Source: Acidobacteriota bacterium (GTDB lineage: Bacteria > Acidobacteriota > Thermoanaerobaculia > Multivoradales > UBA5704). Taken from it: DNA of 64,000 nt. The notes beneath the pieces are model-generated. The model was given only the letters and a program-made list of their open reading frames with translations. It ran no database searches and was not told the DNA's origin. Below are positions 2,290-34,858 of this stretch, in pieces (the first letter of the stretch is position 1; every line of letters starts with the position of its first letter). Position numbers and translations under genes: made by a program. Location: the NCBI GenBank assembly GCA_040005235.1, contig JBDTZG010000010.1, forward strand, positions 32,001 through 96,000, given 5' to 3'.

Positions 2290-2889
2290 TCAGGAGCCTT
2301 CCTTCGGCGACCCTGGAAGATCGAGCCGAATCCGGCCGTCGCCCCCGAACCGGAGCCGGATCTCGCCGTCGCGATCGGTGCGTAAAACGCGAAGTCCGCG
2401 CGCGGCGAACCGCTCCAGCACCTCGGGCGAAGGATGGTAGTAGGGATTCTTCGGCCCGACCGAGATCAACGCCCAACGGGGATCGACCGCGTCGAGTAGG
2501 AATCCAGCCGACGAGGTTCGGCTGCCGTGGTGCGCCACTTTGAGCACGTCGGATCGCAGGCGTTCTTGCGGCAGATCGAGCAGGCGCAGCTCTCCTATCC
2601 GTTCGACGTCTCCGGTGAGCAGCACCCGCCGACCGTACACCTCGGCGGAGAGAATCAGCGAACGTTCGTTCTCGGCGGTTCCACCCCGTTCCACCTCCTC
2701 ACGCGATGGCCCGAGGACGCTCAGCCGCCAGCGCCCGACGCGGCCACGAGCCCCCGCGACGAACGTGCGGACCCGCGCGCCGGGGACCGAAAACAGCTCG
2801 CCCGCGCAGCCTTCCGCCGGCCAGCCCGGCGCGGTCCAGATCTCCCCAATGTCCAAATAGGACGAAAGATCGACCAGGCCTTGGCAGTG
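2290..2889 (-). pseudogene. comEC: 3' fragment of comEC/rec2 (metallo-beta-lactamase domain, HCQGLVDL...KVAHHGS...NPYYHP...RTDRDG)
   Basis: LLTGD, KVAHHGS, NPYYHP and RTD motifs; frame stays open up to the junction at 2890. Confidence 0.92.
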
Positions 2890-4451
2890 ATCTGATTGCC
2901 GTGCCTTTTTGCCAGGCCTTTGGGGGAAGGGGGGCTGGAGGGAGGGGTGCTCGACGGAGATGTCCCAAAGGGAGGGATGGTAGGCGGAGGTGTATAGGCG
3001 AGGTTGATTTCGATCTCCCCCTTGCCTACGACGATCCGCTCGACCACCTGCTCCACGATTTGCCTCCGATCCTCAAAGGGAAGCTGCGGCCATCGGGCAT
3101 ACAGAGACCCCGCTTCGACGACAAAGCCGGCAGCGGAGACCTGCTGGATCTTGAGGAAGTCAACCTCCCCCTGAAGGCGAGGAATCTCGGTATCGAGCTG
3201 GGAGGCTCGTTCCTCAAGCGGACGGTGGCGCTCCCCAAACGACTTGGTTGAGAGCCCCTCGTCCTGATAGAGCCGGTAGAGCTTGTCCATTTCAGAGGAC
3301 ACTCGGGTGCGCTCCCGCAAGAGCGCTACTAAGAGATCCTCCTTCTGGCACAGTGCCTCATCTCCTTCCGAGAGGTATGCCGCGACCTCCTGAGGGTCGA
3401 GGAAAAAGTCTCGGAGCTTTTCGTGAAAGACCTGCTCAAGGTCCGCAGTCGGGATCTTGTTATGACACCCTCCCAGCCTGCTGTTGCAGATGTACTTCGG
3501 GCTGTTGGACGGGACGCGCATCTTCCGGCCACAGGAGCAGAAGGTGACGCCAGTGAAGAGGTGAACCGCCGGGCGGCCTGTCCGCTTCACCTTGGCGAGG
3601 CGGTCTTTGAGGTATGCGTTGCACTCTTCCCAGATCTCCTCGGACACCACCGGCTCAACGTTGGTCCATACCCATTCGTGCTCGGGCTTGATGAGTCGCT
3701 TCACGCCGTCGCTGCGGGAGTAGTTGGCGCGATGGAGCCCCTTGGCGACCGGGTTGGTGAGGAGTTCCCGGATGGTCATGTCCGCGAACAGTTGCCCCTT
3801 CCTCGTCCGATATCCAGCCTCGTTGAGGAGGCGGGCAACCCGGCCGATGAGACGATGCTCCCGGAAGAGTTCAAAGACGAGCTTCAGAATCGGAGCTTCG
3901 CTCGGATCGGGCATTAGCCGCGCCTTGTTCTCCCAGCGGTATCCATAGGGAGCCTTCCCCGCGACTGGTTTCCCTAACTTGGCCCGGATCGGCACCGATG
4001 CCGCTATCCGGGCGGAGATTTCCTCTCGCTCCCACTCGGCAAGGGCCGCGATGAGCGTGTAGAAGAAGCGGCCGGCCGGGCTTGAGGTGTCGATCGACTC
4101 CGCGAGGGAGATGAGGTCGGCCCCTTCCCGCCGGAAGATGTCGGCGAACTCCAGAAGCTCCTTGGTGTTTCGAGCCAACCGAGCGAGCTTCGAGAAGATG
4201 AGGCCGGTGATCGTGCCTTCCCGTACGTCGGCAAGCATCTCGATCGCTTCGGGCCGGCCCATAACGGACTTCCCTGAGATCGCATCGAGCCGGTACACCT
4301 TGGCGACAGTCCAGCCCTTCATCTCGGCGTACATCCGGGCGCGAGCTTCATGGGTCTCCGGGCTCTCACCCTTGACCTGATCCTCGGTTGAGACCCGAAT
4401 CCAGAGTCCTACTTGTTTGCCTCCTATGCTATTTGGCTCCTGCAGTTTCAT
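2721..4451 (-). CDS. Large serine recombinase (integrase); last 56 aa read out of frame into comEC in the integrated state
   Basis: WIRVST catalytic motif, SKLARLARN, recombinase domain, CSCG...C zinc ribbon, coiled coil. Confidence 0.95.
   Translation of the reverse strand: MKLQEPNSIGGKQVGLWIRVSTEDQVKGESPETHEARARMYAEMKGWTVAKVYRLDAISGKSVMGRPEAIEMLADVREGTITGLIFSKLARLARNTKELLEFADIFRREGADLISLAESIDTSSPAGRFFYTLIAALAEWEREEISARIAASVPIRAKLGKPVAGKAPYGYRWENKARLMPDPSEAPILKLVFELFREHRLIGRVARLLNEAGYRTRKGQLFADMTIRELLTNPVAKGLHRANYSRSDGVKRLIKPEHEWVWTNVEPVVSEEIWEECNAYLKDRLAKVKRTGRPAVHLFTGVTFCSCGRKMRVPSNSPKYICNSRLGGCHNKIPTADLEQVFHEKLRDFFLDPQEVAAYLSEGDEALCQKEDLLVALLRERTRVSSEMDKLYRLYQDEGLSTKSFGERHRPLEERASQLDTEIPRLQGEVDFLKIQQVSAAGFVVEAGSLYARWPQLPFEDRRQIVEQVVERIVVGKGEIEINLAYTPPPTIPPFGTSPSSTPPSSPPSPKGLAKRHGNQITAKAWSIFRPIWTLGRSGPRRAGRRKAARASCFRSPARGSARSSRGLVAASGAGG
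2890..2914. other. Left att junction (element-side arm ends in TTTTTGCCA)
   Basis: + strand ATCTGATTGCCGTGCCTTTTTGCCA; outer 9 bp are the inverse of TGGCAAAAA at the right junction. Confidence 0.85.
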
Positions 4452-4621
4452 GGATTGTCTCCATCTGCTCTAGGTTATGATTGCGTGAGGTAGAAAGAAC
4501 AGCATCCCGCGGTAAGAGTACGGATGATTTTCTCGCGCTCAAGGCGCCGAAAAGTGCCAGAACGGCATTCATTCAAGGATGATCCTCCGTCCGGCTACCT
4601 TTCGACGGAGACAAGGAGGTT

Positions 4622-4867
4622 TTGATGGACGCTAGCAATGTCACCAATAGCGTCGGACTCGTTCTCGATATCCTCGGCGCGTTTTTGGTCTGGCAGTACG
4701 GATTGCCGGCCGTAATGGAGCCTGGTGGAACTCGATACCGTAGCCGTTCCGGAAGTGACCCGGAAGGTCCGAGCACGGAGAAATTGCAATATCGAGCAAG
4801 ATCCAAGGCAGGTTTTGGTCTACTCATGGCGGGATTCATCTTGCAGTTGCTAAGCAATTTTCTCTAG
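4622..4867 (+). CDS. Small two-TM membrane protein
   Basis: AGGAGG RBS; two hydrophobic segments. Confidence 0.6.
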   Translation: MMDASNVTNSVGLVLDILGAFLVWQYGLPAVMEPGGTRYRSRSGSDPEGPSTEKLQYRARSKAGFGLLMAGFILQLLSNFL

Positions 4868-4896
4868 TGGCATCGTGGTTTTGGTTACGGAGAGGG

Positions 4897-5784
4897 ATGG
4901 ACATTCTGATGGCAAATGAACTCAAAGATCACAATGACGGTGAAAGGGACGGAGCCAATGCGTCATTCTTTGACGAAGTAGGATTGAATTGGAATCCGTT
5001 CCTATCTGAGGCCTATAAGAAGGGGTTTCGGAATGGCATGGCGAATAAACCCCGCAGAACGGCCAAGGAGTCATCACCCACGGCTTCGTCGAATGCATCA
5101 AGCGATGATGGACTGTGGCCTATCGCGTTAATCTTATACTTAGCTTTCGGCGTAGTATGGATCATATTTGTGATTATTGGATGGGCTATTAGTCGGCCTT
5201 GGCGATTTGCCGTTGGCGTGCTATTCGTATTATTTTTTGCAATATTACATGACATGGCATCCATACCTCAAGATTACTTTCTGCCATTCTCCAACTACAT
5301 CAACACTTTTCGCATATCTGACAATCCCACTCCGCCAGTTCCATCAACACCCATCCACAAAGAACCGGAACCATCGGATTCACCTTTCGTATCCCTTGGT
5401 CATTTTTCTGGCGACTCATATGAACTAGAGCTTTACCGAGACGATGAATCAGGCGGCCAAGTCATGGGCCTGATCACGGCTTTTCCTCAAGATGTCAGCA
5501 AAATGCCATCGGTAGGAGAGGTATACGATGTAGTAGGAACTGGCAGCGACGGACCACTGAGTTTCCGAACAACCTGGGTGGACTATTTGCCCTCTTTCAG
5601 AGGCAATGTAAACGGGGATCAAATCGAAGGCGACTATGACACGACCTTCGAGACCGAGCCGCGACACGTAATCTTCCGACGCTATACGCCTCAAGACGCC
5701 ACGACCTATGCCAACCGCGAGGAATGGTCTAAGCATGTCGCCGAGCAACTCGCATGTTGTGGACCAGGAACAACCGATCAGTAG
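4897..5784 (+). CDS. Hypothetical membrane protein
   Basis: Long ORF in an AT-richer region with two TM segments; start uncertain (4867, 4897 or 4909). Confidence 0.6.
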   Translation: MDILMANELKDHNDGERDGANASFFDEVGLNWNPFLSEAYKKGFRNGMANKPRRTAKESSPTASSNASSDDGLWPIALILYLAFGVVWIIFVIIGWAISRPWRFAVGVLFVLFFAILHDMASIPQDYFLPFSNYINTFRISDNPTPPVPSTPIHKEPEPSDSPFVSLGHFSGDSYELELYRDDESGGQVMGLITAFPQDVSKMPSVGEVYDVVGTGSDGPLSFRTTWVDYLPSFRGNVNGDQIEGDYDTTFETEPRHVIFRRYTPQDATTYANREEWSKHVAEQLACCGPGTTDQ

Positions 5785-5804
5785 AGGCTTCGGGTTCCTG
5801 CCGC

Positions 5805-8800
5805 TCACTCCTCCTTCTGAAGTCTGCTCATGCTGCGCGCCAGGATTTCGGCGACTCGGTTGGAGCGCCCGTCTCCCGGGTGTTGGTAGCGGACTTTCAC
5901 CTTGTACCCGGCAACCACGTCTTCTTGCTCCTCAGCCGGCTGACCTGAAAGCCATGCAAGAAGTTCCTCCGGAGTGAATATATGGACGCGCCCGAGATCC
6001 TCAGCCGAAAGCGCCTCTGCAAGCGCTTCGCGGAGCTTTGAGAGGCGCCCCTTCTTGAGGGAAACCATGGCGACTTTCTGAAAGCCTGCCGCCAGACACT
6101 TCCTGACGTTCCCGACCTCATACTCAAGAGGTGTGGTAATCGAGATCTCGCAGGCGATGCGTGCGTCCCCCCGATACAGCGCGACATCGATGCTCTCTCT
6201 GCCGCCGGCAATCTGCTCCTCCACCACTGCTCGGAAGCCCTGCTCTTGCGCCCACCGCTTGATGAGTTCTTGGAGGTAGGTATGCTCCGGCCCTCCCTTG
6301 CCCGGTCGGCGTGGCTCGAAAGGCGGCTCCTTCTGAAGACCATCCGCTTTCGAATGTTGAAGCGGCGGCGTCCCCGCTTCGCGAGCCGGCGTCACGGGAG
6401 GCGTTTCAGCCCTTGGTGCTGGTGCATCTCCTTTCCGCGGCTCTTCGGGTGAAGGACTCGGCCGCGCTGTAGCTTCCTCTGAGCGCCGGGCGCCCCACCG
6501 CGAGAGCGACCGGACCCGAATCTCCCGGCGTCGTGCGTCCCGTGCTTCAGGGTCCTCTCGCTTGGCATAGACCGTACGAAGGTTGAAGTCCTGCTCCTTC
6601 CGGCCGACCCGGCATACAGCCTCGCCGGTGCCGAGGTTCCCCAGATCGTCCGCCTCGAAGAAGGAGAACCCTTGCGCCAATGTGCGAGCGTCTTCGTCTC
6701 CCAGGCGGAAACAGATCCTGGTATATGCGTTCCCCAACACCGCCCGCTCCACTTCGGGGACGGTGCTATGGAGCTGGTAGAGGTCTTGGTGAGCGACAGT
6801 CAGGCCGAGACGGTATTTGCGGGCGCCGGAGAAAAGCGCCGCCATGGAGGGTGTCGCCAGGTTGTGGAACTCGTCGAGATAGAGGTAGAAGGGCTCGCGG
6901 GCCGATTCCGGTTGGTCCTGCCGCAGGAGGCAAACCTGGTGGAGCTTGGAGACCAGGAGCGAGCCGAGAAGCGCCGCATTCTCTTCGCCGATAGCGCCCT
7001 GTGAGAGCTTGGCGAGAAGAATCCGCCGGTCATCGACGACGCTCCGGAAGTCCAGGGGCTTCTCGACCGCGGTCACCACGCCGCGCAGAAGCCTTCCGCG
7101 CAGGATTGTATCGAGCCGCGTGAGGATCGATGCCTGAGGTTTGCCCGAGAGCATCGGAAACTCGGTCGTCCAGAAGTTCCGCGCGTACTCGTCTCGGACG
7201 GTTGTGAGGAACTCTCGCCTGAAGCTCGCATCCACCAGAAAGCGCCGGAGATCGAGGAGCGTCCCGCCCCGCTCTGACTCCAGGAAGGCGAGGATCGCGT
7301 TCGCCAGAACCGCCGTCATCTGGTCGCCCCAGGAGGTCGCGAGCCGCCGGAAGACCGCGACCAGATCCGAGGCGAGCATGTCTTTCTCGGCTTCGGAATG
7401 AGAGGAGAGCATGTTCCAGCCGACGACAAAGTCCGGCTCGGCAGGATCGAAGACAATCACGTCTTCCGCCCGGTTTTCGGGAATCGCCCCAAGTACCTCA
7501 TCGATGAGGTCACCGTGCGGGTCGATCACACCGACACCATGTCCCGCCGCAATGTCCTGGAGGATCATCGACACCAGAAGCGTTGACTTGCCAGTGCCCG
7601 AAGCGCCCACGACGTGCGTATGCCGCATGCGGGCGTCCGTCGAAAGCCGAGCTTCACGCTCCACTCCCGCGTGGACGTTGTATCCGAGAAAGATCCCACG
7701 AGAAAGCGCCTCGGCAGGAAGCGCCTTGGTGCGGGTGGTATCTCGATTCACACCTTCAATCGAGGGGGATGGCAGGTGTACCAGAGACACCAGCTCCGGG
7801 AGCGAGAGGAGCATGCCCGAGCGATGCGTTGTTCGCAGGATCACGTCGCCGAGCACTTCGTCGCTGCCGCCAATCCCGAATGGCACGAATTCGTTGTCGC
7901 CCCTGGTTGCACCCGAAAGCGCGCCGAGCGCGCCAGAGAGGAGGGTCCACAAACGCTCTTCTCTCTCTGCCCGGGCGACCAGACGGACAGCGACCGCGAA
8001 GAGCGGCGCGGACATCTTCTCTCTGGCGAGCTTGGTGACTTCGGGGGCGTCCGCGAAGAATGGATCGCCCGAAGGGGTGACCACCGAGCGAACCACGCTC
8101 TCCGCCCACGGCGCCCTCACCCCCTGAAAAAGGACTTGGAGAATTGCAACCTCGCCGGAAACGGTCTCCGCAAGCGCGCCAATGACCGCAGTCAAGGGGT
8201 CGAGCGAGAAGTTTCGGGGACGGTCAAGCGGCAGCATGAACTCGCGCGAGAGGCCAAGCTCGACGGCGGAGAAGACACCCTCGGCTCCCGCTTCCCATGC
8301 GTTCAAGAGGAGATCCGGTCCCTTCTCCAAAGCGATCTCCGGGAAGAAAGCTCGAAGTTGGGAGGACAGGATCGTGATCGCGTCACGTCGGGCGGTGAGG
8401 AGAACCGACACCCGCCCGCCCGAGCCGACCAGCTCCATCGACAGAGGCGAATGGACAGCAGCCAGACTCTTGAGCAAGCCTTCGGAGGCCGGTGCGGTGA
8501 CGGAGAGATCCTTTGGCAGGAGTAACCGTAGCTCGACAGGTTCTCCGTCCTCGTCGCCGCTCTCCGGCTCCGGCTCTTCGAGTTCGGGCGGAGGCGCCGG
8601 CTCCTCCCGTTTCTGAGAGAACCGTGCGAAGAAAGATGAGAGCCAGGTGTGATGCCTGCCGTCATCGACGGCAGGCGCGGTGTGACTCAGAAACCGGAAA
8701 GGAGTGAAGGGAGGCTCAAGAGAGACGGGGAACGGGTAGCTGTTTCGCCCGCGGCCCCGCCGCTCCCACCGGTAGAAGTGGCGGGTGCGCTCTTCAATGC

Positions 8801-8807
8801 TCGCCAT
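5805..8807 (-). CDS. VirD4/TraD-like (HerA/FtsK superfamily) ATPase with C-terminal PD-(D/E)xK-like domain
   Basis: Walker A GASGTGKS, IDPHGD, Walker B YLYLDEFH, ARKY and HQ motifs; C-terminal E...IDVAL...ACEIS. Confidence 0.85.
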   Translation of the reverse strand: MASIEERTRHFYRWERRGRGRNSYPFPVSLEPPFTPFRFLSHTAPAVDDGRHHTWLSSFFARFSQKREEPAPPPELEEPEPESGDEDGEPVELRLLLPKDLSVTAPASEGLLKSLAAVHSPLSMELVGSGGRVSVLLTARRDAITILSSQLRAFFPEIALEKGPDLLLNAWEAGAEGVFSAVELGLSREFMLPLDRPRNFSLDPLTAVIGALAETVSGEVAILQVLFQGVRAPWAESVVRSVVTPSGDPFFADAPEVTKLAREKMSAPLFAVAVRLVARAEREERLWTLLSGALGALSGATRGDNEFVPFGIGGSDEVLGDVILRTTHRSGMLLSLPELVSLVHLPSPSIEGVNRDTTRTKALPAEALSRGIFLGYNVHAGVEREARLSTDARMRHTHVVGASGTGKSTLLVSMILQDIAAGHGVGVIDPHGDLIDEVLGAIPENRAEDVIVFDPAEPDFVVGWNMLSSHSEAEKDMLASDLVAVFRRLATSWGDQMTAVLANAILAFLESERGGTLLDLRRFLVDASFRREFLTTVRDEYARNFWTTEFPMLSGKPQASILTRLDTILRGRLLRGVVTAVEKPLDFRSVVDDRRILLAKLSQGAIGEENAALLGSLLVSKLHQVCLLRQDQPESAREPFYLYLDEFHNLATPSMAALFSGARKYRLGLTVAHQDLYQLHSTVPEVERAVLGNAYTRICFRLGDEDARTLAQGFSFFEADDLGNLGTGEAVCRVGRKEQDFNLRTVYAKREDPEARDARRREIRVRSLSRWGARRSEEATARPSPSPEEPRKGDAPAPRAETPPVTPAREAGTPPLQHSKADGLQKEPPFEPRRPGKGGPEHTYLQELIKRWAQEQGFRAVVEEQIAGGRESIDVALYRGDARIACEISITTPLEYEVGNVRKCLAAGFQKVAMVSLKKGRLSKLREALAEALSAEDLGRVHIFTPEELLAWLSGQPAEEQEDVVAGYKVKVRYQHPGDGRSNRVAEILARSMSRLQKEE

Positions 8808-8815
8808 GCCTCACG

Positions 8816-9511
8816 CTACGCCGTGGCTGCCGCCTCGTCGGCGTCGGGCCGCAGCTCCTCGTCGCCGAGGCGCCTGAGTCCCTTCTCCTCCCGCAGATCG
8901 TTGATGACCTCGTTGACGGCCGAGCGCACGGAGTCTCGAAACATCATGGCGGTGTCGAGTCGGTAATACGTGAGGGGGTTGAAGAAGAACACGTACAAGC
9001 GGCCGATGATCGGGAGCATCATTACCCCCTCTTCGTCACCGATCAATCCCTCCTGCATCAGGTACCCCATCGAGAGGAGGACCATGGCGTACAGGATGTA
9101 TGGGATCACCAGAGCCACCAATACACCGCCGAGACCATCTGGCCTCATCAGCGAGGTCATGATGAGGAGAATCCCGGTGACGCATGCCGCCACGAAGAAG
9201 ATCCCGAGTGAAACCAGAATCCCAAACCTCGGAGGTACGCGGGCAAGCCACCAGGAGAAGAAGTGCCCGCCGCCATACGGCGCCGAGCAAATGTCGAAGG
9301 CAATCCGCTTCCGTCGGACCCGGAGGTACTCGCGTTCCGCCGTTCCGACACCACCCTCCTTGAATCGCTCGCGGGACATCGAGATTTCCGGAAGATTTCG
9401 TTCTCGGACCGCCTGCTCGACAGCTGCGTAAAAATCCTGGGTTGAGGTCGAGAAGCCCTCGAAGAGCATGTGCCAGTTGGACAGCACCAGTCCGTTAGGA
9501 TTGCTTGGCAT
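8816..9511 (-). CDS. Hypothetical membrane protein, co-transcribed with the VirD4-like gene
   Basis: GGAGG RBS, 2-3 TM segments, 8 nt gap to the downstream gene. Confidence 0.7.
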   Translation of the reverse strand: MPSNPNGLVLSNWHMLFEGFSTSTQDFYAAVEQAVRERNLPEISMSRERFKEGGVGTAEREYLRVRRKRIAFDICSAPYGGGHFFSWWLARVPPRFGILVSLGIFFVAACVTGILLIMTSLMRPDGLGGVLVALVIPYILYAMVLLSMGYLMQEGLIGDEEGVMMLPIIGRLYVFFFNPLTYYRLDTAMMFRDSVRSAVNEVINDLREEKGLRRLGDEELRPDADEAAATA

Positions 9512-9544
9512 TGCAGCCCTCCTCCGCTCTGAAGTGATATTCAG

Positions 9545-26563: not shown

Positions 26564-26581
26564 ATAGACTAACCGATACAC

Positions 26582-26773: not shown

Positions 26774-26820
26774 CCACCCGAAGGGGGTGATGTGTGCCAC
26801 AGTGGTACTAAGTCCTGTCT

Positions 26821-26997
26821 TGTGCGCGTGATGGGGTGTTAGTAGACGGTTGCACAAAGCAACCGGAGCGGCACATTTCCCTCTCTACCATGCGTCGCGA
26901 TCTAATTCGGCTTGAAAAGTCGCTCGATCCAGAACTAGCTGCCGATATCGAGTCCTGCTATCACGAACTGCGCGGCAGAGGCACATTTGCGACCTAA
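26821..26997 (+). repeat. Diverged copy of the 3' end of recombinase 2 (26381-26540) with an open frame
   Basis: Translates CARDGVLVDGCTKQPERHISLSTMRRDLIRLEKSLDPELAADIESCYHELRGRGTFAT*. Confidence 0.85.
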
Positions 26998-27003
26998 CTA
27001 CAA

Positions 27004-27825
27004 TTAACTTTGGCCTCTAGTCGAAATTCGCCTACACCACCCTGCTACATCTTCGGGCACCGCGAGAACGAGGCGGTGTCCATGCATCTGTGCGAACTGA
27101 GAAGCCGAAGGTAAAAAGCGAGAGGTGGTTACAAAGAGTCCGCGGCTTGCTTGTTGGTGCTCGACCACTCCGTAGAGAGCAGCGACAGCTTCGAGCTTAA
27201 CAGGGTATTGCGGGTCGTATCGTTTCGCCTGCACCAAAGTGACAAGCTCGCCGATCGAATCCTTCTGGACGAGACGAATATCGACTCCGGCATCCCCGCT
27301 GCCTGGACCGAGTTCCGTGTGAGACCCCTGATTCCGAAAGATAGCGTCGAGAAGATATTCAAACTTTCGCCACTCTAGTTGATGGAGTTCATTAGGATGT
27401 AGCCCAAAATATTCAATTAGCTCATCATTTACCGTCTTAAAGTCTGGCGTTACGACATGGCATACATGCGCAAACCTGGAATTTGCATAAAGAAGCTCAA
27501 AATGCCTCAATTCATTAAGTTTCTCACGCGATCTCCGCAGCCTATCTTGCCGAAGACCGTTTGGATATTGCTGATAGGTTTCAATGTCGTCGATGGCGTG
27601 ATAGTTAGCGAAATCCGTGCCATCATTGACAAAAACTGCCCGATATTCGGCGAGCTGCTCATCTATTCGCTCTTCTTCTCCTTTAGCTCTCCCTTCTTCT
27701 TCAACAATGCGAGCCATTTCGGATTGCAGAAATCTTTCAAATCCGTTGTGCGGTAAGACCGCGAGCAGTTGCTCTATCGTTATCGTCTCGTCCTCCAAGA
27801 ACCTATGAAACAGTTCTAGATTCAT
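27004..27825 (-). CDS. Mrr-like (type IV) restriction endonuclease domain protein
   Basis: WRKFE, DAGVDI, VQAKRY, FVTTSRF. Confidence 0.85.
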   Translation of the reverse strand: MNLELFHRFLEDETITIEQLLAVLPHNGFERFLQSEMARIVEEEGRAKGEEERIDEQLAEYRAVFVNDGTDFANYHAIDDIETYQQYPNGLRQDRLRRSREKLNELRHFELLYANSRFAHVCHVVTPDFKTVNDELIEYFGLHPNELHQLEWRKFEYLLDAIFRNQGSHTELGPGSGDAGVDIRLVQKDSIGELVTLVQAKRYDPQYPVKLEAVAALYGVVEHQQASRGLFVTTSRFLPSASQFAQMHGHRLVLAVPEDVAGWCRRISTRGQS

Positions 27826-28355
27826 TAAGCGTTATCTCAAAACTGAGAATTGTTTTGATTGACCGCTGTCTTTGTAGAAGAGGTGTCCACCAAATGATCC
27901 ACATTCTTCCTGTAGCGCACAGGGTAGTGTGTTCTCGTGTCTAGCCAGCGGCGTCTGATGAGCGGCAGAGAATACTGGAGAAAATATAGCGGCACATCGT
28001 ACATGGCGCAAGTTCTTTCTACGCCCACTCATTACGACATGGCAAAGAATGCATCCAGCGATCAGCGGCAAATGAAGAGAGTCTCAACGTAGATCTAACG
28101 GCAAAATCTCCTGAAATGGCTGCCGGGGAGAACCGACGTTTACCCCGCCGGTCCTTGGCGCTCCACTTACGTTCCGCAATTTCGTCACATTTCGGGCTCT
28201 CAAAGGCCGCAAACAAGGCGTAACTCGGTCGGTTTGTTGCGACTATCAAGAACATCCGTCCACTGAGGGCATCCCGGCCGCACTGTAGAGCCACAGGCGG
28301 CCCCTCATCCTGGGAGTCAGGAAGCGAGCGGAAGCCGTCTCGAAAGGTGTTCGGG

Positions 28356-28628
28356 ATGGTCCGTCGAACTGTCGTCCTTGTTGCGTCCTTCCTTCTGGTG
28401 GCCTCAGCGGCGCTTGCAGCAGGCGCCTCCCGCGAGTCTCGATCTCTCTGGGAATCGTTTTCGACAAGATCTTTCCTGGAATCAGTCCGTGTCGCGCTCA
28501 GCGGTCTCCTTCACGATCCGATCGGTCTCTTTGCGAACAATGGCAGCGAGACCGATCCAAACGGCAAGCCTCTCGCGTCGCCGCCGGCAGGAGTTGGAAA
28601 CGGCGGCACATCTCCTCAGGCCCAGTGA
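28356..28628 (+). CDS. Small secreted peptide with GSETDPNG motif
   Basis: Sec signal (ALA cleavage site); followed by a terminator and the TPR gene. Confidence 0.7.
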   Translation: MVRRTVVLVASFLLVASAALAAGASRESRSLWESFSTRSFLESVRVALSGLLHDPIGLFANNGSETDPNGKPLASPPAGVGNGGTSPQAQ

Positions 28629-28643
28629 TTGATGTCTGTGCTC

Positions 28644-28678
28644 GGCGGAGGCCAAATTATCGGCCTCCGCCTCTTTTT
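28644..28678 (+). terminator. Rho-independent terminator
   Basis: GGCGGAGGCC-8 nt loop-GGCCTCCGCC followed by TCTTTTT. Confidence 0.85.
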
Positions 28679-28750
28679 GTCCCGGATGACCCCTTGAAGC
28701 TCACCTCCAAGAGTAAGACACTACAGCTCTAGCGCGAAAGGACACAGGGG

Positions 28751-30115
28751 ATGAATGATCTGCATCTGAGTCGGGAGCTTCTTCGTGCCATCGCGGCCGG
28801 CGACCTTCCCCCTCGCACACTTCTCGACATGGCCCTCCCACACCTGTTCGAGCTTTGCCCGCACTGTGCCTCGGAGTGGGATTCGTATCAGCGCGAGATG
28901 CGGACGCGCCCGGGAAGTTACGCGGGCGCCTTCGCGATTCTTCCAGCCCTCCTCGAACGGGAACTTCCCAAGGCACAGGCAGAGGAACACCAAGCCCGCA
29001 AGGATCTCCAAGTCCTCTTGGGCCTCCCCGAGGACCAGCGTATTTCGCGTGTTCGTCGCTCCTATCGACGCTTCCGGACACCGACTCTGGCCCAACTCCT
29101 TGTTATCGAATGCAGGAAGCGGTTGAGTTCCGTTCCCCGCGAGGCCTACCATTTAGCGGATCTCGCTCGCGAGGTCACAAACCAGGTTCCCGAGTCACCG
29201 ATCGCCCGCGAGCTGCGGGCGCTTTCGTTTGGCGAGATGGCAAACGCCATCCGGGCCGTCGGTGATCTCCCACAAAGCGACCGCATCTTCGGCCAGGCTC
29301 GCTACTTCACCGTGGTTGGCGGGGTAACCGATCCAGAGATCCTGGCACGGCTCGACTCATTGGAAGGCTCACTGCGACTCGACCAGGGCCGCTACCGTGA
29401 TGCCGAAGAGATCCTCGGCAGGGCGCGGCTTCACTACGAGCTCATAGGCGACCGTCCTGCGGTCGGGCGAGTGCTCATGCAGCTCGCGACGGTGTACCGC
29501 CGCAGTGGAGAGACTTCACGCGCAGTGCGGCTCGGGACAGAGGTCGTCGGATACTTCGACCCTGAGTCCGACCTTTGCCTCTATCTCGCCGCCCGGCGGA
29601 ACCTCGCGGACTACCTTGGCGATTATGGGCGCGGGAGGGAGGCCCTCGCGATTCTCGACGAGGACGAGGTGCGGCATCGCTCCCTCGGAGAGCCCCTTCT
29701 CCAGATCCGCTACACCTGGATTCGCGGCAAGATCGCTATCGGTCAAGGAGAATTCGAGAGCGCGGCGCGCCTTCTTGCCGCGGCGCGCGATGTCTTTCTT
29801 GGCTCCCAGAAGGAGTTTGACACCGTTTTGGTCTCACTTGATCTTGCCCAGGCCTATCTTGGTGCCGGACGCCTGGAGGAGACGAAGCGAATCGCCTCGG
29901 AAATCGTGCCGCTCTTCGAGGCGAATGAGCTGCATCGCGAGGCATTGGCGGCCGTTCTCGTTTTTCGCGACGCCGCCGAGCGCGAGACGCTTACGGTCGA
30001 TTTCCTGCGAGAGATGGGAACATTCCTCGAAGCCTCCCGGACAGATCATTCTCTGCGATTCGAGCCTGGCAAGCGTCTGAATCCACGGGGACGGACACTT
30101 AGCAATGACGCCTGA
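28751..30115 (+). CDS. TPR protein with N-terminal HxxxxCxxC zinc-finger (zf-HC2-like) motif
   Basis: HLFELCPHC; helical TPR-like repeats. Confidence 0.8.
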   Translation: MNDLHLSRELLRAIAAGDLPPRTLLDMALPHLFELCPHCASEWDSYQREMRTRPGSYAGAFAILPALLERELPKAQAEEHQARKDLQVLLGLPEDQRISRVRRSYRRFRTPTLAQLLVIECRKRLSSVPREAYHLADLAREVTNQVPESPIARELRALSFGEMANAIRAVGDLPQSDRIFGQARYFTVVGGVTDPEILARLDSLEGSLRLDQGRYRDAEEILGRARLHYELIGDRPAVGRVLMQLATVYRRSGETSRAVRLGTEVVGYFDPESDLCLYLAARRNLADYLGDYGRGREALAILDEDEVRHRSLGEPLLQIRYTWIRGKIAIGQGEFESAARLLAAARDVFLGSQKEFDTVLVSLDLAQAYLGAGRLEETKRIASEIVPLFEANELHREALAAVLVFRDAAERETLTVDFLREMGTFLEASRTDHSLRFEPGKRLNPRGRTLSNDA

Positions 30116-30279
30116 GACCGATGGTTTTCGCACTATGCGCCGACGCCTCTTAACGCACAGCGAGACATGCACATATCTGAATTTGACGCGATGCGCGTGA
30201 AGCGACAGACTTCTTGACGTTATGATGCTTTTGCCCATTTTCCAGTAATGCTTTTACTCAACACCAATAGGAGACATCA

Positions 30280-31014
30280 ATGCGCTACATTCTCGCTTTC
30301 TCAATACTCCTGATCGCCGCTTCCTCTCCACACGCGAGTGCCTTGGATATTAGAACGACACCATTGCCTTCTGTCACTGCTGCAACGGTCTCTACGCAGT
30401 TTGGCTACACCACAGCCCAAGCCAAAGGAATGTTGGACTTAACCCAGAAAGAACTCTGGTCTCTCGTACCACCGAATCCGACGGCATGGACAACTTCCAC
30501 TTACGCTCTGAGAACTCGAATGAATACGGCTCTTGGGACGCAGGGTTTCGACAGTCCACTTGCAAATGTAATCATCAATTCTTGCAAGGTTTATGCTCGC
30601 GATGCTCGTCACTGTGTCATATTTGCGTCGGCGGTCGCCTGTGCTGAAAGTAGCTGCGGTCAGACATATAGCACTTCTGCTTATGCAATTTTCGGCCTCA
30701 AAGATAGCAACAGCCAACCTATTAAATACTCGTCAAGGACGCATGCGGTCATTGATTGGGTGAAGAGGTATAATGTCAGCTGGTTCGTTGCTGACGAAGG
30801 TTATTTTTACGGATTCTGCAAAAAATACGGCTCGACCTTCCTTCCGCATTGCGACAACGTAGGCACAGACTATTATGCAAATTATTTTTACTCGAACAAG
30901 AAGGGCCGGTATCCTGCGTCGAATTATTGCGGCTCTGAGAGCGGCTCCTCCACTCCTGGTTATTGTCCAAACGGATTCGCGAATTCCAAGGCGGCGTACT
31001 TGAAGGTCAAATGA
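30280..31014 (+). CDS. Secreted lysozyme-fold (glucosaminidase-like) protein
   Basis: AGGAG RBS, signal peptide, ACAESSCG and IFGL motifs. Confidence 0.55.
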   Translation: MRYILAFSILLIAASSPHASALDIRTTPLPSVTAATVSTQFGYTTAQAKGMLDLTQKELWSLVPPNPTAWTTSTYALRTRMNTALGTQGFDSPLANVIINSCKVYARDARHCVIFASAVACAESSCGQTYSTSAYAIFGLKDSNSQPIKYSSRTHAVIDWVKRYNVSWFVADEGYFYGFCKKYGSTFLPHCDNVGTDYYANYFYSNKKGRYPASNYCGSESGSSTPGYCPNGFANSKAAYLKVK

Positions 31015-31255
31015 CCTCGATTTCCGATTCTAGAGTCCAGACGCAATCCGCGGATACCATGTGAACATGCTCTTCCACTCTCGAATGCCACCGCTCCACA
31101 TGTGGCCGGAGATCGCAGCAGACCGCCGTCATGGCAAGCAATGCACTCATGACGCGCTTCCTACGCGGCTATTCTGCGGGAACAGAGCTATCTCAATTAC
31201 GGAATTCGGGCCGCGGTGTGAGGAGCACCTCAGGCCGAGCTAGCAGCAAGCCGCC

Positions 31256-32410
31256 TCACAAAGCAATCCTGAGTTGGCTGGGTGAGGCTTCCAAGGTTCT
31301 TGAACCTCCCGGAGAAGGCTTCGCAGGAATGAAGGGGCGATCAATCCACTGTTTATAGGCAGCGATGTTACAGGTAAGGAGTGCGTCCACCAACCTGTTT
31401 GCTTCCGGGTCAACTCCTTCCCACTTAATCCGCCGCGACATCAACCGCGCCCTTTTCCTCTTGATAGAATTCATGAAGGGCCTCGAATCGCTTATCGTCC
31501 AATCGGTAAAGAGTCGAGAGATCTCTCCCCTGAATTGTGCAGCTCCAACAGCAACAAGGTGCAAAGGCCGCTTCAGAGCATCCTGAAGCCGTGCTAAGTG
31601 GTGCAGGGCATCGCGCCCTCGCGCCGGATTCGCGAGACCGGTCTGGAACTCTTTCGAGACCATCGTGATCTCTTCGTGAGTCTCCAAAAATTCGAGCCAG
31701 TATTGCCAGTCTCGTAGAGTAACAGCCTGAAGATATGGAATGATTGGAATACCACGTGCACTCCATTCCCGAGCACAGACCAAGGAGCGCTTTCGGTTGT
31801 AGAGATGCTGGGGCCGAGGATGGCGTAACGAGAAGGAATAGTTTGGAACTATTGCTCCGCTAAAACCCATTTTCGCGAGTGAAGCAAAAATCTCTTCGTT
31901 CCTGTCTCCCCAATAGCGCTCAATGACATCATCCAGACCAATACCTACCAACAACAGCTTTGCTGTTGGTCGCAGCTTGAACCGTTCTCGGATTGCACTG
32001 CGAGACATCGCAATAGGAGTTGGTATGCCTCGGGGATGTTGAATCAAACCAGAGAGAGGTACGGCTGCCCAATCAGCGCGAAGAGACCTCGCGCGGCTTG
32101 ATCCATGCTGGATTAGCGGGAGGTAGCGTGGAAGTGCTTCAGTTGGAACATTCAAAGGTCCAATATCGTCAAAATCAAAACCTCCAACCTCAATGAATGC
32201 GTCGTTCAAGACATCAGGCTTACCGAGGCAGATAAGATCACAATCAGCGGCACAGCCGTTGCATCGGCCCTCACACCATCCCCCACCAACTCGAGTATTC
32301 CCACCACAGAGATACAATAAGCCGCAGCCCTGACACCATAAGCTGACAGTGTCACCGTCCATGCGGTGAAGTTCGATGTTCTCGCTCAAGACCTCTCGAG
32401 ACCTTTTCAT
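31256..32410 (-). CDS. DUF4417-like protein with Cys-rich N-terminus
   Basis: CxxC..CGG..C...C..C..C; PNYSF, NRKRS, GIPIIP motifs. Confidence 0.6.
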   Translation of the reverse strand: MKRSREVLSENIELHRMDGDTVSLWCQGCGLLYLCGGNTRVGGGWCEGRCNGCAADCDLICLGKPDVLNDAFIEVGGFDFDDIGPLNVPTEALPRYLPLIQHGSSRARSLRADWAAVPLSGLIQHPRGIPTPIAMSRSAIRERFKLRPTAKLLLVGIGLDDVIERYWGDRNEEIFASLAKMGFSGAIVPNYSFSLRHPRPQHLYNRKRSLVCAREWSARGIPIIPYLQAVTLRDWQYWLEFLETHEEITMVSKEFQTGLANPARGRDALHHLARLQDALKRPLHLVAVGAAQFRGEISRLFTDWTISDSRPFMNSIKRKRARLMSRRIKWEGVDPEANRLVDALLTCNIAAYKQWIDRPFIPAKPSPGGSRTLEASPSQLRIAL

Positions 32411-32428
32411 TAATGATCAACCTTTCGC

Positions 32429-32806
32429 TTAATGCTTCTCGTATCGAGGATGGAATTTCAGTGCAACTATTCCTTCCTCTTGGAAAACCTCGGTTACTTC
32501 GGCCGATAGAGCTTTGCTCTGTCGCGCGCTCGCGGAAGCTTCACCGAATAGTTCGACCACCCGCGATTTTCCATACGACAACGTGAAACTGTCTTGCTCT
32601 CCTACTTGAGGAAAGTGCACGAGTCTTTGACCGGGCTTGACTGACTGGCCTGGCATGAGCAGACCAATCACGTCAGACGAAATACTCGGAGGTACGCCCG
32701 AAAAAAGGTCTGGTCCAGCGAGAAACCTCTGGAAGTCGCGATCGATGCAGCGACGGATCTGTCTGTGCTGACGCTCAAGAAACTCTTCACCCATAGCTAC
32801 CTCCAT
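32429..32806 (-). CDS. Hypothetical protein, third gene of a 4-gene operon
   Basis: Overlaps the upstream gene; 18 nt gap to the downstream gene. Confidence 0.65.
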   Translation of the reverse strand: MEVAMGEEFLERQHRQIRRCIDRDFQRFLAGPDLFSGVPPSISSDVIGLLMPGQSVKPGQRLVHFPQVGEQDSFTLSYGKSRVVELFGEASASARQSKALSAEVTEVFQEEGIVALKFHPRYEKH

Positions 32807-33405
32807 AAGGGGACGTAAACAAATTGACGTCCATACTTGTAGCGACTGAGAAGCCGCTGCTCATAGAGCAGAGCAAGCCGATTGCTCCACCCTGTCTGTT
32901 GAATTCGGGGATCTTGACGAAAAAGGTCGGTAGCAGTTGCCTGTTCTAGAGAAACAACCCGGTCGTACGTCTCGGTAGCGTCTCGGTCAAGCCCGAAAGG
33001 CCGAAACTTTTGCTGATCGGGTTCCCAGAAGAGGGTTCGATAACCGGTAGCCTTGAGGGCGAGCTCAATCTCGTCCCTTGACTCTGGGTTTACGTCTGCG
33101 AGTACTGGAAAAAGCTCCTTCTCGCGCGCAACCCGAGAATTCCAGAGCCACTCAAACGCACCGAGGAAATAGGAGGAAGTGACGAGTTGCACTCCTCCGA
33201 AGTCCAAAAGAATTGCAGCGTTCGAGGTTTCCCTACCGATCGCCTCATCCAGGGCGGGACGAGTGGCCTCACCCGCAAGTCGGCCGGCTAGGGTCGTACT
33301 CCCCCCTAGTGCCGCTACATCTACCCTGACCTGCGTCAGCATCACCATGAATCGTGACGATAGAAGAATCGGCAAGGACTTGTCAACCCCCCCCTTACGC
33401 TCCAT
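32797..33405 (-). CDS. STAS-like domain plus winged-HTH protein
   Basis: ILLDFGGVQLVTSSYF; C-terminal WSNRLALLYEQRLL...GRQFVY. Confidence 0.65.
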   Translation of the reverse strand: MERKGGVDKSLPILLSSRFMVMLTQVRVDVAALGGSTTLAGRLAGEATRPALDEAIGRETSNAAILLDFGGVQLVTSSYFLGAFEWLWNSRVAREKELFPVLADVNPESRDEIELALKATGYRTLFWEPDQQKFRPFGLDRDATETYDRVVSLEQATATDLFRQDPRIQQTGWSNRLALLYEQRLLSRYKYGRQFVYVPLWR

Positions 33406-34309
33406 TGAATGGGCCTCCTAGTCGAACTCGAAAGCCATTGCTCCGAACTGGCAAGGCGCGAGCATGGATCGTTTGGTGGGTGGGGCTTACCCCCTCCCAT
33501 GTCGCGACAGCCCCCCCTGAGCGGAAGCGAAGAACAGCCCGACGATCGACCAAGGACTTAAAGACGCGGGAGAACCCCATTCCCCGACCTGAAATTGGCA
33601 ACCGAGACACACCGGGTTGGAGCGCCTGCTCCAGTGCTTCACCTTCAGTCCCAAGAGCCTTGTGGCGCGGGTTCTCTCTCAGGCTTGCGAGCACTCCCCT
33701 CCCAACATCTACAACACTGAGAGCCCACGTTCCTTGGCCAACCTCAAAACATGCAACAGGGCGCACAGGCGAAACTGCGTGCTCTGCCGCATTCGACATC
33801 ATCTCCTGAAGCGCCCCAGCAAGTGCACTCGCGAAACCTGACCCCACGCCTTGGCTGCGCAAGGCGGTGCGGAATTGCTCCTGAAACTGGGTCAGAATTC
33901 CACCTGGCTCCCAGTCCTTCGGTGATGTACCGAATTGTTTGATTCCTGGGCGAATAGGCCCTTGGGTATATGCCAAGCTTCGGGACTGATCTGGCTGGAG
34001 AAGCTCGCAGCCCGCAGCTAGTGCTCGCAAATTAGTGAGCGCAGGCCAACGCTCCAATTCCGGAAATGATGAAATAAGATCCTCTCCGCTATCTCGCCAT
34101 CTCGAGTAGCGAAGTGCGGAGAACTCCAACGCTGAAGAAAACCCCAAACCGACGAGATTTCCTCCCGTTGCAGTTCCCCTTTGTAGGGCAATCTCAAACA
34201 GATCAATAGGATCGAAGGATTGAGACATTCTGGTCCGCTTTGGCTTTCGGTCCACTTCCCATTGAGCAGCTCCTTTCGGTGCCGAGAAAGGCAGGCGTAA
34301 GTCTATCAT
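33395..34309 (-). CDS. GHKL/HATPase_c (anti-sigma kinase-like) ATP-binding protein
   Basis: N-box EMMSNAAEHA, G1 DVGRG, G2 GRGMGF. Confidence 0.8.
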   Translation of the reverse strand: MIDLRLPFSAPKGAAQWEVDRKPKRTRMSQSFDPIDLFEIALQRGTATGGNLVGLGFSSALEFSALRYSRWRDSGEDLISSFPELERWPALTNLRALAAGCELLQPDQSRSLAYTQGPIRPGIKQFGTSPKDWEPGGILTQFQEQFRTALRSQGVGSGFASALAGALQEMMSNAAEHAVSPVRPVACFEVGQGTWALSVVDVGRGVLASLRENPRHKALGTEGEALEQALQPGVSRLPISGRGMGFSRVFKSLVDRRAVLRFRSGGAVATWEGVSPTHQTIHARALPVRSNGFRVRLGGPFNGA

Positions 34310-34414
34310 GGAATCAGCAGTCTCGCGCGAAGAGTGCTAACAGATCTCACTGAACCGTAGGTCAAGCAATTGTCGGCAGGCAAAGAGCCCCAGGATCTCT
34401 CCTGGGGCTGGTCG

Positions 34415-34858
34415 CTACGCTTCCGCCTCCACGAACTCCCTCACCACCGTCAGCACGCGCCTGTTCGTAACCTCCTTTCCCGTCTCAAGAAGACTGATGG
34501 TGTCCTTCGGGACATCGAGCTGCCGAGCCAACTGATACTGCGTGAGCCCGAGGTTCCGGCGCTTCTCCCGCAGCCGCTCCGCGAATGTCATAGCCCCCTG
34601 GAAGGGTTCGTACCCTAGAAACTCGATAATCCTCCCCAGGTACGAGGTCTTCGGCTCAGCTCTCCCGGTCTCCCAAGCGTTGACCGTGTTGGCCTCCACT
34701 CCAAAGATCTCGGCAACCTCAGCCTGAAGAAGCTTCAAGTCCAGCCGGCGCTTTCGGAGGTGGTCTCCAATGGACTGGAGTTCCTTCGGATACTCCGGCG
34801 GCAAGGGCTTGGGCACCGAGATCGTGAGGTGGCAAAAACCCAAAGCAGGTATCGCCAT
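34415..34858 (-). CDS. Tandem XRE-HTH protein; its ATG lies in host comEC sequence across the att junction
   Basis: Two HTH_3-like units (HLRKRRLDLKLLQAEVA..WETG; LREKRRNLGLTQYQLA..LETG). Confidence 0.85.
   Translation of the reverse strand: MAIPALGFCHLTISVPKPLPPEYPKELQSIGDHLRKRRLDLKLLQAEVAEIFGVEANTVNAWETGRAEPKTSYLGRIIEFLGYEPFQGAMTFAERLREKRRNLGLTQYQLARQLDVPKDTISLLETGKEVTNRRVLTVVREFVEAEA
34830..34853. other. Right att junction
   Basis: + strand TGGCAAAAACCCAAAGCAGGTATC. Confidence 0.85.

Follow-up and report, generated by a model that had tools for sequence, protein, structure and literature searches.

The stretch of DNA analysed here (64,000 nucleotides, hereafter the window) contains a comEC gene that is interrupted by an island of 31,961 bp at positions 2890-34850. 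The 5′ fragment of comEC (34851..36587, minus strand) encodes DUF4131, Competence and the start of Lactamase_B according to Pfam and, as an ORF, extends into the island to 34719. The 3′ fragment (2290..2892, minus strand), the metallo-beta-lactamase part of the gene, has been displaced by the island and gave no Pfam family when its 200 aa were scanned alone. Its frame (..D/HCQGLVDLSSYLDIGEIW.., the slash marking the junction) continues that of the 5′ fragment, and the comEC frame across both junctions reads ..THPDGD/HCQGL.., i.e., the metallo-beta-lactamase motif region. The insertion is independently confirmed by contigs of relatives from two other metagenome runs (X3 and X4, ca. 90% alike), which join both fragments into an uninterrupted comEC at exactly this point. 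Their match to the 3′ part of comEC ends at window position 2889/2892, where they leave the window and continue with the letters of the comEC 5′ part; in X3, 28 of the 30 letters past the crossover are identical to window 34851-34880. Based on this comparison, the junction reading and a frame script, the crossover core is GAT, present both at the integrase-side junction (2890..2892, minus strand; P arm and host) and at the HTH-side junction (34851..34853, minus strand; host and P′ arm).

The island cargo (4452..34414) includes, according to Pfam scans, two TrwB/TraD-like ATPases (5805-8807 and 19231-20391), a giant M23-peptidase/FN3 protein (9545-13735), a Ser/Thr kinase-TPR protein (16104-19169), a second large serine recombinase (24824-26563), an Mrr-type endonuclease (27004-27825) and a HATPase_c_2 protein (33395-34309). 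These scans detected no phage structural genes in the cargo, and relatives of the HTH module described below were absent (0) from the viral contigs of IMG/VR. The 32-kb element is thus a non-phage genomic island, integrated in comEC via a large serine recombinase.

The integrase and the double-HTH ORF

The large serine recombinase ORF (2721..4451, minus strand) has 576 aa in the integrated state, of which 520 are encoded by the island and 56 are a host-derived tail. Direct reading of the sequence bore out the initial annotation, which had described the integrase as open up to the att site and its tail as a non-coding frame of comEC: from 4451 to 2892 there is no stop ahead of the crossover, the island-encoded part ends with residue 520 (Q, codon 2894-2892), and the 56 residues that follow come from reading the comEC 3′ fragment in a non-coding frame. 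Pfam identified Resolvase (PF00239, 1.1e-29, residues 17-157), Recombinase (PF07508, 4.6e-16) and Zn_ribbon_recom (PF13408, 2.2e-5, its 25.2 bits being just below the cut-off of 25.3), all three upstream of the crossover. Among 36 aligned homologues, R19, V20 and S21 of the nucleophilic serine region are nearly invariant and the cysteines C305, C307, C322 and C329 are invariant; a heptad-like stretch was seen by eye around residues 365-440. Between the recombinase core and attP lies the Pro/Ser-rich linker noted before (residues 487-510; 2922..2993, minus strand). Homologues of the integrase are numerous (5556 at E≤0.001, of 8000 scored), and no operator-like word was common to the regions upstream of the family integrase genes, the best 7-mers occurring in 6 of 14 regions, two of them duplicates.

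At the opposite end, a 147-aa ORF with two XRE-type HTH units (34415..34858, minus strand; island-encoded from 34852) forms the C-terminal part of the fused gene discussed below. HTH_3 was matched in two stretches (1.6e-18), and the predicted structure (mean pLDDT 85) has two four-helix domains, with residues 1-29 as coil. The best fold matches of the single HTH domains were P22 c2 and 434 Cro, over ca. 58 residues, with TM scores of 0.7-0.8 relative to the target and a Foldseek E of only ca. 0.01. The ATG of this ORF (34858-34856) and the next codon are comEC DNA, and the island part begins at the I codon 34852-34850. That only host DNA offers a start hence holds for ATG, as noted by the initial annotation, but not for other start codons, with an in-frame TTG (residue 6) and GTG (residue 15) lying inside the island part. 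The database gene call (P0126, 94 aa) begins at residue 54, inside the first HTH, so that the ORF is left without a convincing native start.

The attachment site and the reading frame across it

Attachment sites of serine integrases are short (about 40-50 bp) and imperfectly palindromic, with a central 2-bp crossover. The left half-site of attP lies inside the integrase ORF (2893..2913, minus strand), its outer motif GGCAAAAAG at 2913-2905 being the inverted repeat of GTTTTTGCC at 34831-34839. The right half-site lies inside the HTH ORF (34831..34850, minus strand; junction reading and frame script) and encodes ..PALGFC.., so that attP falls at the N-terminal edge of the HTH module. In the window, 13 of the 20 arm positions are complementary, and relatives have the same geometry, with 13-17 of 20 complementary around the central dinucleotide in the reconstructed attP arms (window, G416, G424 and G426). 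When codon 520 of the integrase and the I codon are joined by a script, the two ORFs fuse in frame, as predicted, into 520+145 = 665 aa with the core GA and 0 stops. From the sequence, it is supported that attP lies inside one Int-linker-HTH-HTH frame and, because it does, that recombination would toggle between a fused and a split gene. The attP palindrome also codes for protein, the left arm for the last residues before the crossover and the right arm for the first ones after it, and integration therefore cuts the gene.

This toggle, proposed by the initial annotation, gained further support from other elements. The frame across attP is kept in 12 of 12 paired element ends (the window and 11 other genomes, with comEC or comM as target), which argues against an open frame by chance, even if the pairs are related by descent, so that 12 of 12 overstates the statistics and the independent part consists of two frame classes and the sense-oriented G130. 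The pairs other than the window's lie on the same contig in four cases (G416, G418, G419 and G420) and on separate contigs of one genome in seven (G401, G407, G424, G013, G130, G277 and G426). All 10 comM pairs are in frame, with the register fixed independently by requiring the flanks to rebuild a colinear ComM, for which the intact gene of the genome itself (L183) served as reference. The two frame classes have the same central CA and near-identical arms and are shifted together on both sides of attP, the core occupying codon positions 3/1 on either side in G416 and G424, and 1/2 on either side in G426 (and, by eye, in G013). Each class is well represented among the 120 integrases listed, with at least 33 and at least 31 members.

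Of the 120 HTH homologues listed, nearly all start at the junction motif, with unrelated residues upstream of it. When 78 genome loci and the window were compared, no gene family downstream of the HTH module was shared by more than 5 of the loci, and only the Int and HTH parts are common to the members; the tail therefore belongs with the recombinase and not with the cargo.

Natural fusions

Homologues with integrase and HTH as one ORF, which the initial annotation had suggested looking for, were indeed found. An uninterrupted Int-HTH fusion (P0036) occurs once among the 120 integrase matches listed, all four matches of a search for longer HTH homologues are fusions (P0121-P0124), and two of the 78 genome loci carry a fused gene (L049, 791 aa, and L076). 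A partial fusion (P0241) has a junction identical to the one predicted for G418. Among the best 80 metagenome loci, none of the 45 that could be assessed was fused, besides one partial form (L142) and one remnant without integrase (L129). Such rarity of the fused form is expected if the integrated state dominates. The fused gene of L049 sits within a 302-kb contig with no obvious circle, and no attP circle junction was found in the metagenome contigs compared with the window, a comparison of assembled contigs alone.

It is improbable that integrase and HTH regulator are simply separate units abutting attP, with an inherited, neutral open frame and a read-through protein without a role. The members are related by descent, and since the spacing of the attP arms is constrained, a frame relation would persist once set; besides, an extra DNA-binding tail is normally dispensable for large serine recombinases, and gene callers annotate both parts separately in nearly all records. 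However, neutral read-through should often meet a stop in an unconstrained linker that varies from about 10 to 90 aa in homologues, and none is present up to the junction in those classified. Moreover, two subfamilies read the same palindrome in two frames with matching shifts on both sides, protein-level conservation (KP..YP..LGDHLR) extends over the ca. 20 residues that separate the right arm from the first HTH, with no conserved start ahead of them, and the full fusions stay open over 640-790 aa in distant phyla.

Distribution of the HTH module

The HTH module was detected in at least 412 metagenome stretches and in 78 loci of species-representative genomes, with record titles from many phyla. 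Most family elements sit in comM or comEC, comM being the target in most relatives, and for this reason they are relevant to the conflict of mobile DNA with natural transformation. A family integrase (E≤1e-60) was detected in only 10 of the 24 genomes with the HTH module, and three of five such genomes that were rechecked had no serine-recombinase match at E≤1e-10. These include two whole chromosomes, one of them with an intact HTH ORF, which indicates that the module can persist alone.

Another reading is that of a regulator that is released upon integration. Free HTH-HTH, made from the host ATG, a junction ATG or the right-arm TTG, would then be the working form, acting as a repressor or immunity factor of the island, and the fusion in the circle would keep it inactive or tie its synthesis to the integrase promoter, as an equivalent of integration-dependent immunity for serine recombinases. 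An M at the junction or just ahead of it is found in many homologues (e.g., MPALPFCH, MGIPALPFC and MAAAGFCH), and the junction codon or the preceding host codon is ATG in some members, with TTG in the right arm, which would allow the HTH part to be translated separately once the island has integrated. Within the window, comEC and the HTH ORF are on one strand and comEC transcription thus enters the HTH ORF, which is intact in most integrated copies as well as in the complete chromosome mentioned above, and the modelled domains resemble classical phage repressor heads. We nonetheless consider this role unlikely. There is no conserved start codon or ribosome-binding site, the ATG hinges on host codon choice, and the module is oriented antisense to comM in members inserted in that gene, the common case, so that a host promoter cannot serve it there. 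The cargo beside the module is not conserved either, and hence no common regulated operon is visible. The parallel with integration-dependent immunity drawn by the initial annotation is apt as an analogy, but it does not extend further to a serine recombinase of a non-phage island.

Proposed role of the tail

The architecture and its conservation across the family are very probably real. In the integrated state, the recombinase keeps its full catalytic and DNA-binding core, with the HTH tail swapped for a meaningless host-derived one. The HTH module, which lacks both a promoter and a start codon of its own, is stranded behind the comEC 5′ part at the opposite island end. Excision would restore the single 665-aa Int-linker-HTH-HTH gene, and we infer that the circular form natively makes the fused protein, which is kept by selection. 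Taken as a whole, this architecture, selection for a fused native protein and a tail acting in cis have a probability of roughly 0.6, as judged from sequence comparison.

For the tail itself, our tentative preference, at slightly under even odds, is that it acts in cis on the recombinase made from the circle. Possible actions are tethering of the enzyme to DNA, or repression of its own gene as long as attP exists, which integration would turn off; the recombinase would thereby hold a physical record of the state of its DNA.

A built-in control of directionality, which the initial annotation had proposed besides a freed repressor, would store an RDF-like function in the state of the DNA. The tail would alter the synapsis of att pairs, leaving integration to the fused enzyme and excision to the cut one (by itself or together with the free module). 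Each enzyme form exists only in the state that needs integration or excision, respectively, and the long flexible linker places the tail beside the region of the zinc ribbon and the putative coiled coil, which governs directionality in large serine recombinases. We consider this quite unlikely, given that the cut enzyme retains the entire known recombinase core, and characterised large serine recombinases integrate, their excision needing a separate factor. Engineered integrase-RDF fusions, which are man-made with a known RDF, show that a covalent partner alters the behaviour of a serine integrase, but, judged by them, attaching an RDF to the enzyme form that integrates would promote the reaction opposite to the one needed. 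Domains of the XRE type bind DNA, and no RDF of this type was found in the literature searched. RDFs, which act by binding the integrase and redirecting it to attL × attR, have to our knowledge no defining sequence family among serine integrases.

Returning to the tail acting in cis, it is conceivable, if doubtful, that the family represents a self-contained, state-aware module, with a tailed recombinase made only from the circle and a tail-less one only from the chromosome. This difference, instead of a separate RDF gene, would set the timing and direction of movement, or silence the integrase gene until the next excision, and the palindromic attP would double as a two-frame coding sequence.

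Serine integrases are valued as one-way tools for genome engineering, and their separate directionality factors are the main open problem for reversible use. A natural family that would rewrite its enzyme with each recombination offers a testable, state-encoded control with three proteins, four short att sites and one small DNA-binding module. For annotation, the tails of the family integrases and the starts of the 'XRE regulators' given by gene finders would be integration artefacts, the true gene being readable only after joining the island ends.

Comparison with known systems

In line with the initial annotation, to which no description of this architecture was known, no account of the layout was found in the literature searched; published att-site tables of large serine recombinases may contain members. 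The layout is a real and widespread, novel twist on a known principle, the att site in a coding sequence. The known parallels involve tyrosine integrases (Mx8 IntP, SSV) or attP in a repressor gene (mycobacteriophage BPs), whereas the island uses a serine recombinase.

The integrase of Mx8 is a phage tyrosine recombinase. For Mx8 IntP, attP is reported to lie in the 3′ part of int, where integration yields a new C-terminal end and the enzyme stays active (PMC6070905). In contrast to the island, Mx8 is not known to lose a separate regulator module or to leave anything functional at its other prophage end. The 'suicidal' integrases of the SSV family in archaeal viruses and plasmids are described as carrying the site within the integrase ORF, with integration splitting the gene and excision restoring it (PMC7253208; see also PMC8371274). 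The island shares the att site in the integrase ORF and the split on integration, but the SSV tyrosine recombinase is destroyed by the split, whereas the split in the island spares the serine recombinase core and removes no more than an accessory DNA-binding tail.

Systems of the BPs type are phages with a tyrosine integrase, attP in a separate repressor gene and a repressor whose C-terminus is changed. For BPs immunity, the att site is likewise reported to lie in the coding sequence of a regulator, the protein differing between the free and integrated state (PMC4557955). In the non-phage island, a single gene holds both the integrase and the regulator-like module, and it is the N-terminus of the module that changes.

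Competence genes have been reported as enriched among targets of large serine recombinases (PMC10083194), and comM as a known island hotspot (PMC11472951). These recombinases belong to the same enzyme family, and the preference of the island family for conserved competence-gene motifs (comEC in the window, comM in most relatives) agrees with that enrichment. The passages concerned mention neither an attP inside the recombinase ORF nor an HTH tail. Finally, the circular form of Tn4451 creates a promoter that is absent from the integrated form, whereas the circle of the island would create a protein fusion.

Organization of the recombinase gene at its insertion site

The gene of a large serine recombinase is built around its own attP, and integration cuts a tail with two helix-turn-helix (HTH) domains off an otherwise complete recombinase. 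In the order of minus-strand transcription, the window contains the comEC 5′ fragment (from 36587 down to the junction at 34853–34851, minus strand, as defined by the reading frame), a 147-aa ORF in which ORF reading and domain search revealed two XRE-type HTH domains (34858–34415, minus strand), approximately 30 kb of cargo, the large serine recombinase gene (4451–2721, minus strand) and the comEC 3′ fragment (2892–2290, minus strand). The letters GAT are common to both junctions, and comEC reads ..THPDGD|HCQGL.. across them. As stated in the initial annotation, the recombinase frame is open, without a stop, up to the junction; the last island-encoded residue is residue 520 (Q, 2894–2892), after which comEC is read out of frame for 56 residues. 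Joining codon 520 to the I codon with which the island part of the HTH ORF begins (34852–34850) gave, by script, an in-frame product of 665 residues (520 + 145) with no stops, confirming the fusion predicted earlier. The ATG and the second codon of the HTH ORF are comEC DNA, and on the upstream side its frame meets two stops inside comEC. The factual statements of the initial annotation all proved correct, with one limit: the lack of a start other than in host DNA applies to ATG alone, because an in-frame TTG (residue 6) and an in-frame GTG (residue 15) are present within the island. In public annotation (P0126) this ORF is called from residue 54 onwards, midway through the first HTH, as expected of a gene finder that meets no proper start.

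The insertion of the 31,961-bp island is real, because contigs from two metagenome runs (X3 and X4, both from other samples, X3 from a different study) join the 5′ and 3′ parts of comEC directly. In these relatives, which are ca. 90% alike, comEC is unbroken at exactly this point: the X3 and X4 contigs track the comEC 3′ fragment to window positions 2889 and 2892 and continue with the letters of the comEC 5′ part, 28 of the 30 letters in the X3 continuation being identical to window 34851–34880. The integrated form was present, as expected, in two runs that are possibly the source of the window DNA. The attP junction of the circle was found in none of the Logan contigs, which were read as loose ends at one of the two junctions; this result is uninformative on excision since contigs drop rare forms.

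Distribution of the recombinase and of the HTH module

Homologues of the recombinase number in the thousands. The 120 best share a common core and diverge fully past a short basic motif. Beyond it, the tails can be grouped into a small number of classes, each corresponding to a target gene read out of frame, i.e., a window-like comEC class (at least 16) and two comM classes (at least 33 and at least 31); with looser tail patterns, 102 of these 120 could be classified. One of the 120, P0036 (650 aa), is undiverged and runs into ..IPALPFCH.. and two HTH domains. When the HTH protein was searched against longer proteins, all four matches were recombinase–HTH fusions (P0121–P0124). Homologues with the integrase and the HTH domains in a single ORF, which the initial annotation had proposed to look for, are thus present both among these proteins and in two genome loci, L049 and L076. 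The same query gave 155 matches to proteins of similar length, and nearly all of the 120 HTH homologues listed begin at (I)PALPFCH..KP..YP..LGDHLRKRRLDL, with a few unrelated residues ahead.

The scan of species-representative genomes yielded 78 loci with the HTH module in, according to the record titles, many phyla and groups, including Acidobacteriota, Dehalococcoidia, Scalindua-type Planctomycetes, Bacteroidota, Actinomycetota, Nitrospinaceae, Verrucomicrobiae, Elusimicrobia, Kerfeldbacteria and Saccharibacteria, while at least 412 relatives of the module were detected in the metagenome scan. The long matches of the representative search (P0247–P0277) are not members of the family but arrays of 4–11 XRE repeats without a recombinase; five of them (P0247, P0253, P0254, P0256 and P0277) are 700–1050 aa long, with 6–11 tandem XRE HTH repeats and no other Pfam family. 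P0316, which has recombinase and HTH domains but not the junction and GDHLR motifs of the family, was not counted either. Besides, in several genomes the module is present two to four times at intervals of a few kb, and only the first copy abuts comM (G419:C8 56883–77062, locus L058; also L009, L042, L071 and L050); such arrays may have been left by repeated integration or by tandem elements that decayed.

Conservation of the reading frame across attP

Eleven further elements could be paired end to end. Both ends are on one contig in G416, G418, G420 and G419, in the order HTH, a body of 35–57 kb and integrase, and on separate contigs of one genome in G401, G407, G424, G013, G130, G277 and G426. 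The element in G401 targets comEC at the same motif as in the window, and the other ten are in comM at ..AMNP|CPCG.., nine antisense and one sense (G130). By eye, all 11 pairs of ends join in frame. A crossover search that maximized the palindrome was dropped, as it misplaced the register in G418, G407 and G013 and was unsuccessful for G130 and G277. The register was instead fixed independently by requiring that the two host flanks, once joined, restore a ComM that is colinear with the intact copy in the window's own genome (L183). With this colinearity test all ten comM pairs were in frame, in agreement with the reading by eye, and joining them at the central CA/TG gave open frames of 640–760 aa (428 aa in G426, where the locus is truncated). 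The frame is kept in 12 of 12 pairs (the ten in comM, the window and G401), although these elements are related and do not represent 12 independent trials. Loss of the frame in homologous elements, which had been named as one of the observations that would speak against a fused gene, was seen in none of these pairs.

Independent evidence comes from three further observations. In G130, the element has the reverse orientation with respect to comM. The linker that precedes attP ranges in length from approximately 10 to 90 residues, yet it is open. Finally, there are two frame classes with nearly equal arms and spacing: the central CA is at codon positions 3 and 1 in G416 and G424, on the integrase side and the HTH side alike, and at codon positions 1 and 2, again on both sides, in G426 and, as read by eye, in G013. 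In each subfamily, matched shifts on either side of attP restore the conserved core and the KP..YP..GDHLR segment. An open frame across attP could in principle be a neutral frozen accident, but neutral read-through does not predict matched shifts in two frame classes, and we consider this explanation distinctly improbable. The architecture is well supported, and the pattern in which it is conserved, as judged from sequence comparison, implies selection on the uninterrupted frame.

The attP site is an imperfect palindrome whose arms encode, in the main class, ..KGQRN.. and ..ALPFC..; what is conserved in these two peptides is therefore probably the DNA site. The arms are coding on both sides (window 2893–2913 and 34831–34850; L064/L181 and L053/L087), and the second subfamily translates the same attP DNA one base out of phase; a protein-binding palindrome that doubles as an ORF in two frames is a rare case. 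The segment past the right arm shows conservation at the protein level only, with no conserved start ahead of it. In the structure model this segment forms a predicted coil leading into two four-helix domains, and each HTH domain resembles the DNA-binding heads of P22 c2 and 434 Cro (weak E-values, good TM, single domains).

Possible function of the HTH tail

We infer that the circular form natively makes the fused protein. Against this, uninterrupted fusions are rare: two of the 78 genome loci have one (L049 and L076, both in candidate-phyla-radiation genomes), and of the 80 best metagenome loci, 45 were assessable and yielded none besides a partial one (L142, whose contig begins inside the junction) and a remnant (L129). 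The junction peptide of L129 had suggested a fusion, but only the last dozen integrase residues are present. On this metagenome contig of 2167 nt the HTH module follows the left attP arm, beyond which lies unrelated sequence with stops; L129 is a remnant of the attP state from which the integrase has been deleted. The fused gene of L049 (791 aa) adjoins a TrwB-like ATPase, as in the window, and is located inside a 302-kb contig; the presence of a fused gene therefore does not prove that a free circle exists.

Since members of the family share nothing but the recombinase and the tail, the most plausible role of the tail lies with the recombinase itself and not with the cargo. No gene conserved downstream of the HTH module was found. 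Our leading reading, to which we assign a probability of roughly 45%, is that the tail would act in cis in the circle, either by self-repression or by tethering or partner choice at the att sites, and that integration would switch this action off. On the other side, no convincing operator common to the regions upstream of the integrase genes was found, and the repeats at window 4380–4900 are short and weak. Docking of the integrase core (residues 1–520) with the HTH module gave a score of 0.25 (mark 0.32), which carries no weight either way on binding.

The free HTH module could also be the working form after integration, as an immunity-like regulator. Some members have an ATG at the junction codon (for example MPALPFCH and MAAAGFCH), and in hosts whose comM proline codon is CCA an ATG arises in frame two codons upstream (MGIPAL.., MDIPAL..), so that separate translation of the module is possible. 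An integrase of the family was found at E ≤ 1e-60 in only 10 of 24 module-bearing genomes, and three of five rechecked genomes, which include two complete chromosomes, had no serine recombinase match at E ≤ 1e-10; the module is intact in one of the three. The free-module explanation draws on both the possible starts and this intact module, and we regard it as doubtful. A true directionality function of the tail seems somewhat less likely again. A serine integrase to which a recombination directionality factor (RDF) is fused is driven towards excision, whereas here only the form that has to integrate carries the tail, which is therefore unlikely to be an RDF in the usual sense. The probabilities behind action in cis, the free module and directionality overlap.

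Nature of the element

The cargo includes two TrwB/TraD-like ATPases, a giant M23-peptidase/FN3 protein, a Ser/Thr kinase with TPR repeats, a second large serine recombinase, an Mrr-type endonuclease and a histidine-kinase-like ATPase. Family scans detected no phage-like genes in the island cargo, and 2.9 million viral contigs contained no relatives of the HTH module. The element is a genomic island and not a prophage. The second large serine recombinase (24824–26563, plus strand; 579 aa; Resolvase, Recombinase and Zn_ribbon_recom) is ca. 30% identical to the first and could belong to a nested element or have an inversion or resolution function. A TrwB/TraD-like ATPase of approximately 1000 aa lies upstream of the integrase gene, and co-directional with it, both in the window (5805–8807, minus strand) and in L049, the Kerfeldbacteria locus with a fused gene (3221–6334, plus strand); this ATPase is possibly a second part conserved among these islands, hinting at DNA transfer.

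Outside the island, two small overlapping ORFs of 133 and 90 aa (552–1222, minus strand) resemble, by eye from their translations, a PIN-type toxin and its antitoxin. Just past comEC, a 584-aa ORF (36714–38468, plus strand) carries by eye an NPPY-type motif (..GNPPYIRYQDF..), which is typical of N6-adenine DNA methyltransferases.

Comparison with known systems

The split recombinase–HTH arrangement is readily testable. Neither the full-text literature covered by our search nor the retrieved passages of a survey of large serine recombinases with 6,207 recombinase–att pairs (PMC10083194), whose att-site tables may include members, describe a serine recombinase ORF that crosses attP into an HTH module, in line with the initial annotation, which knew of no such description. 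In the same passages, competence genes are reported as enriched among the targets of these recombinases (PMC10083194), which fits comEC and comM as targets here.

The principle has precedents in Mx8, the SSV family and mycobacteriophage BPs. Their integrases are, as far as known, tyrosine recombinases, and the attachment site of BPs reportedly lies inside a regulator gene. According to the retrieved parts of the respective papers, attP of Mx8 is within int, which acquires a new 3′ end upon integration (PMC6070905), SSV-family integrases are split by integration (PMC7253208), and immunity in BPs depends on integration (PMC4557955). Unlike the family found in the window, none of these systems is known to part a recombinase from a regulator-type domain, and we rate the splitting of a serine recombinase from its HTH tail as a new variant on this principle.
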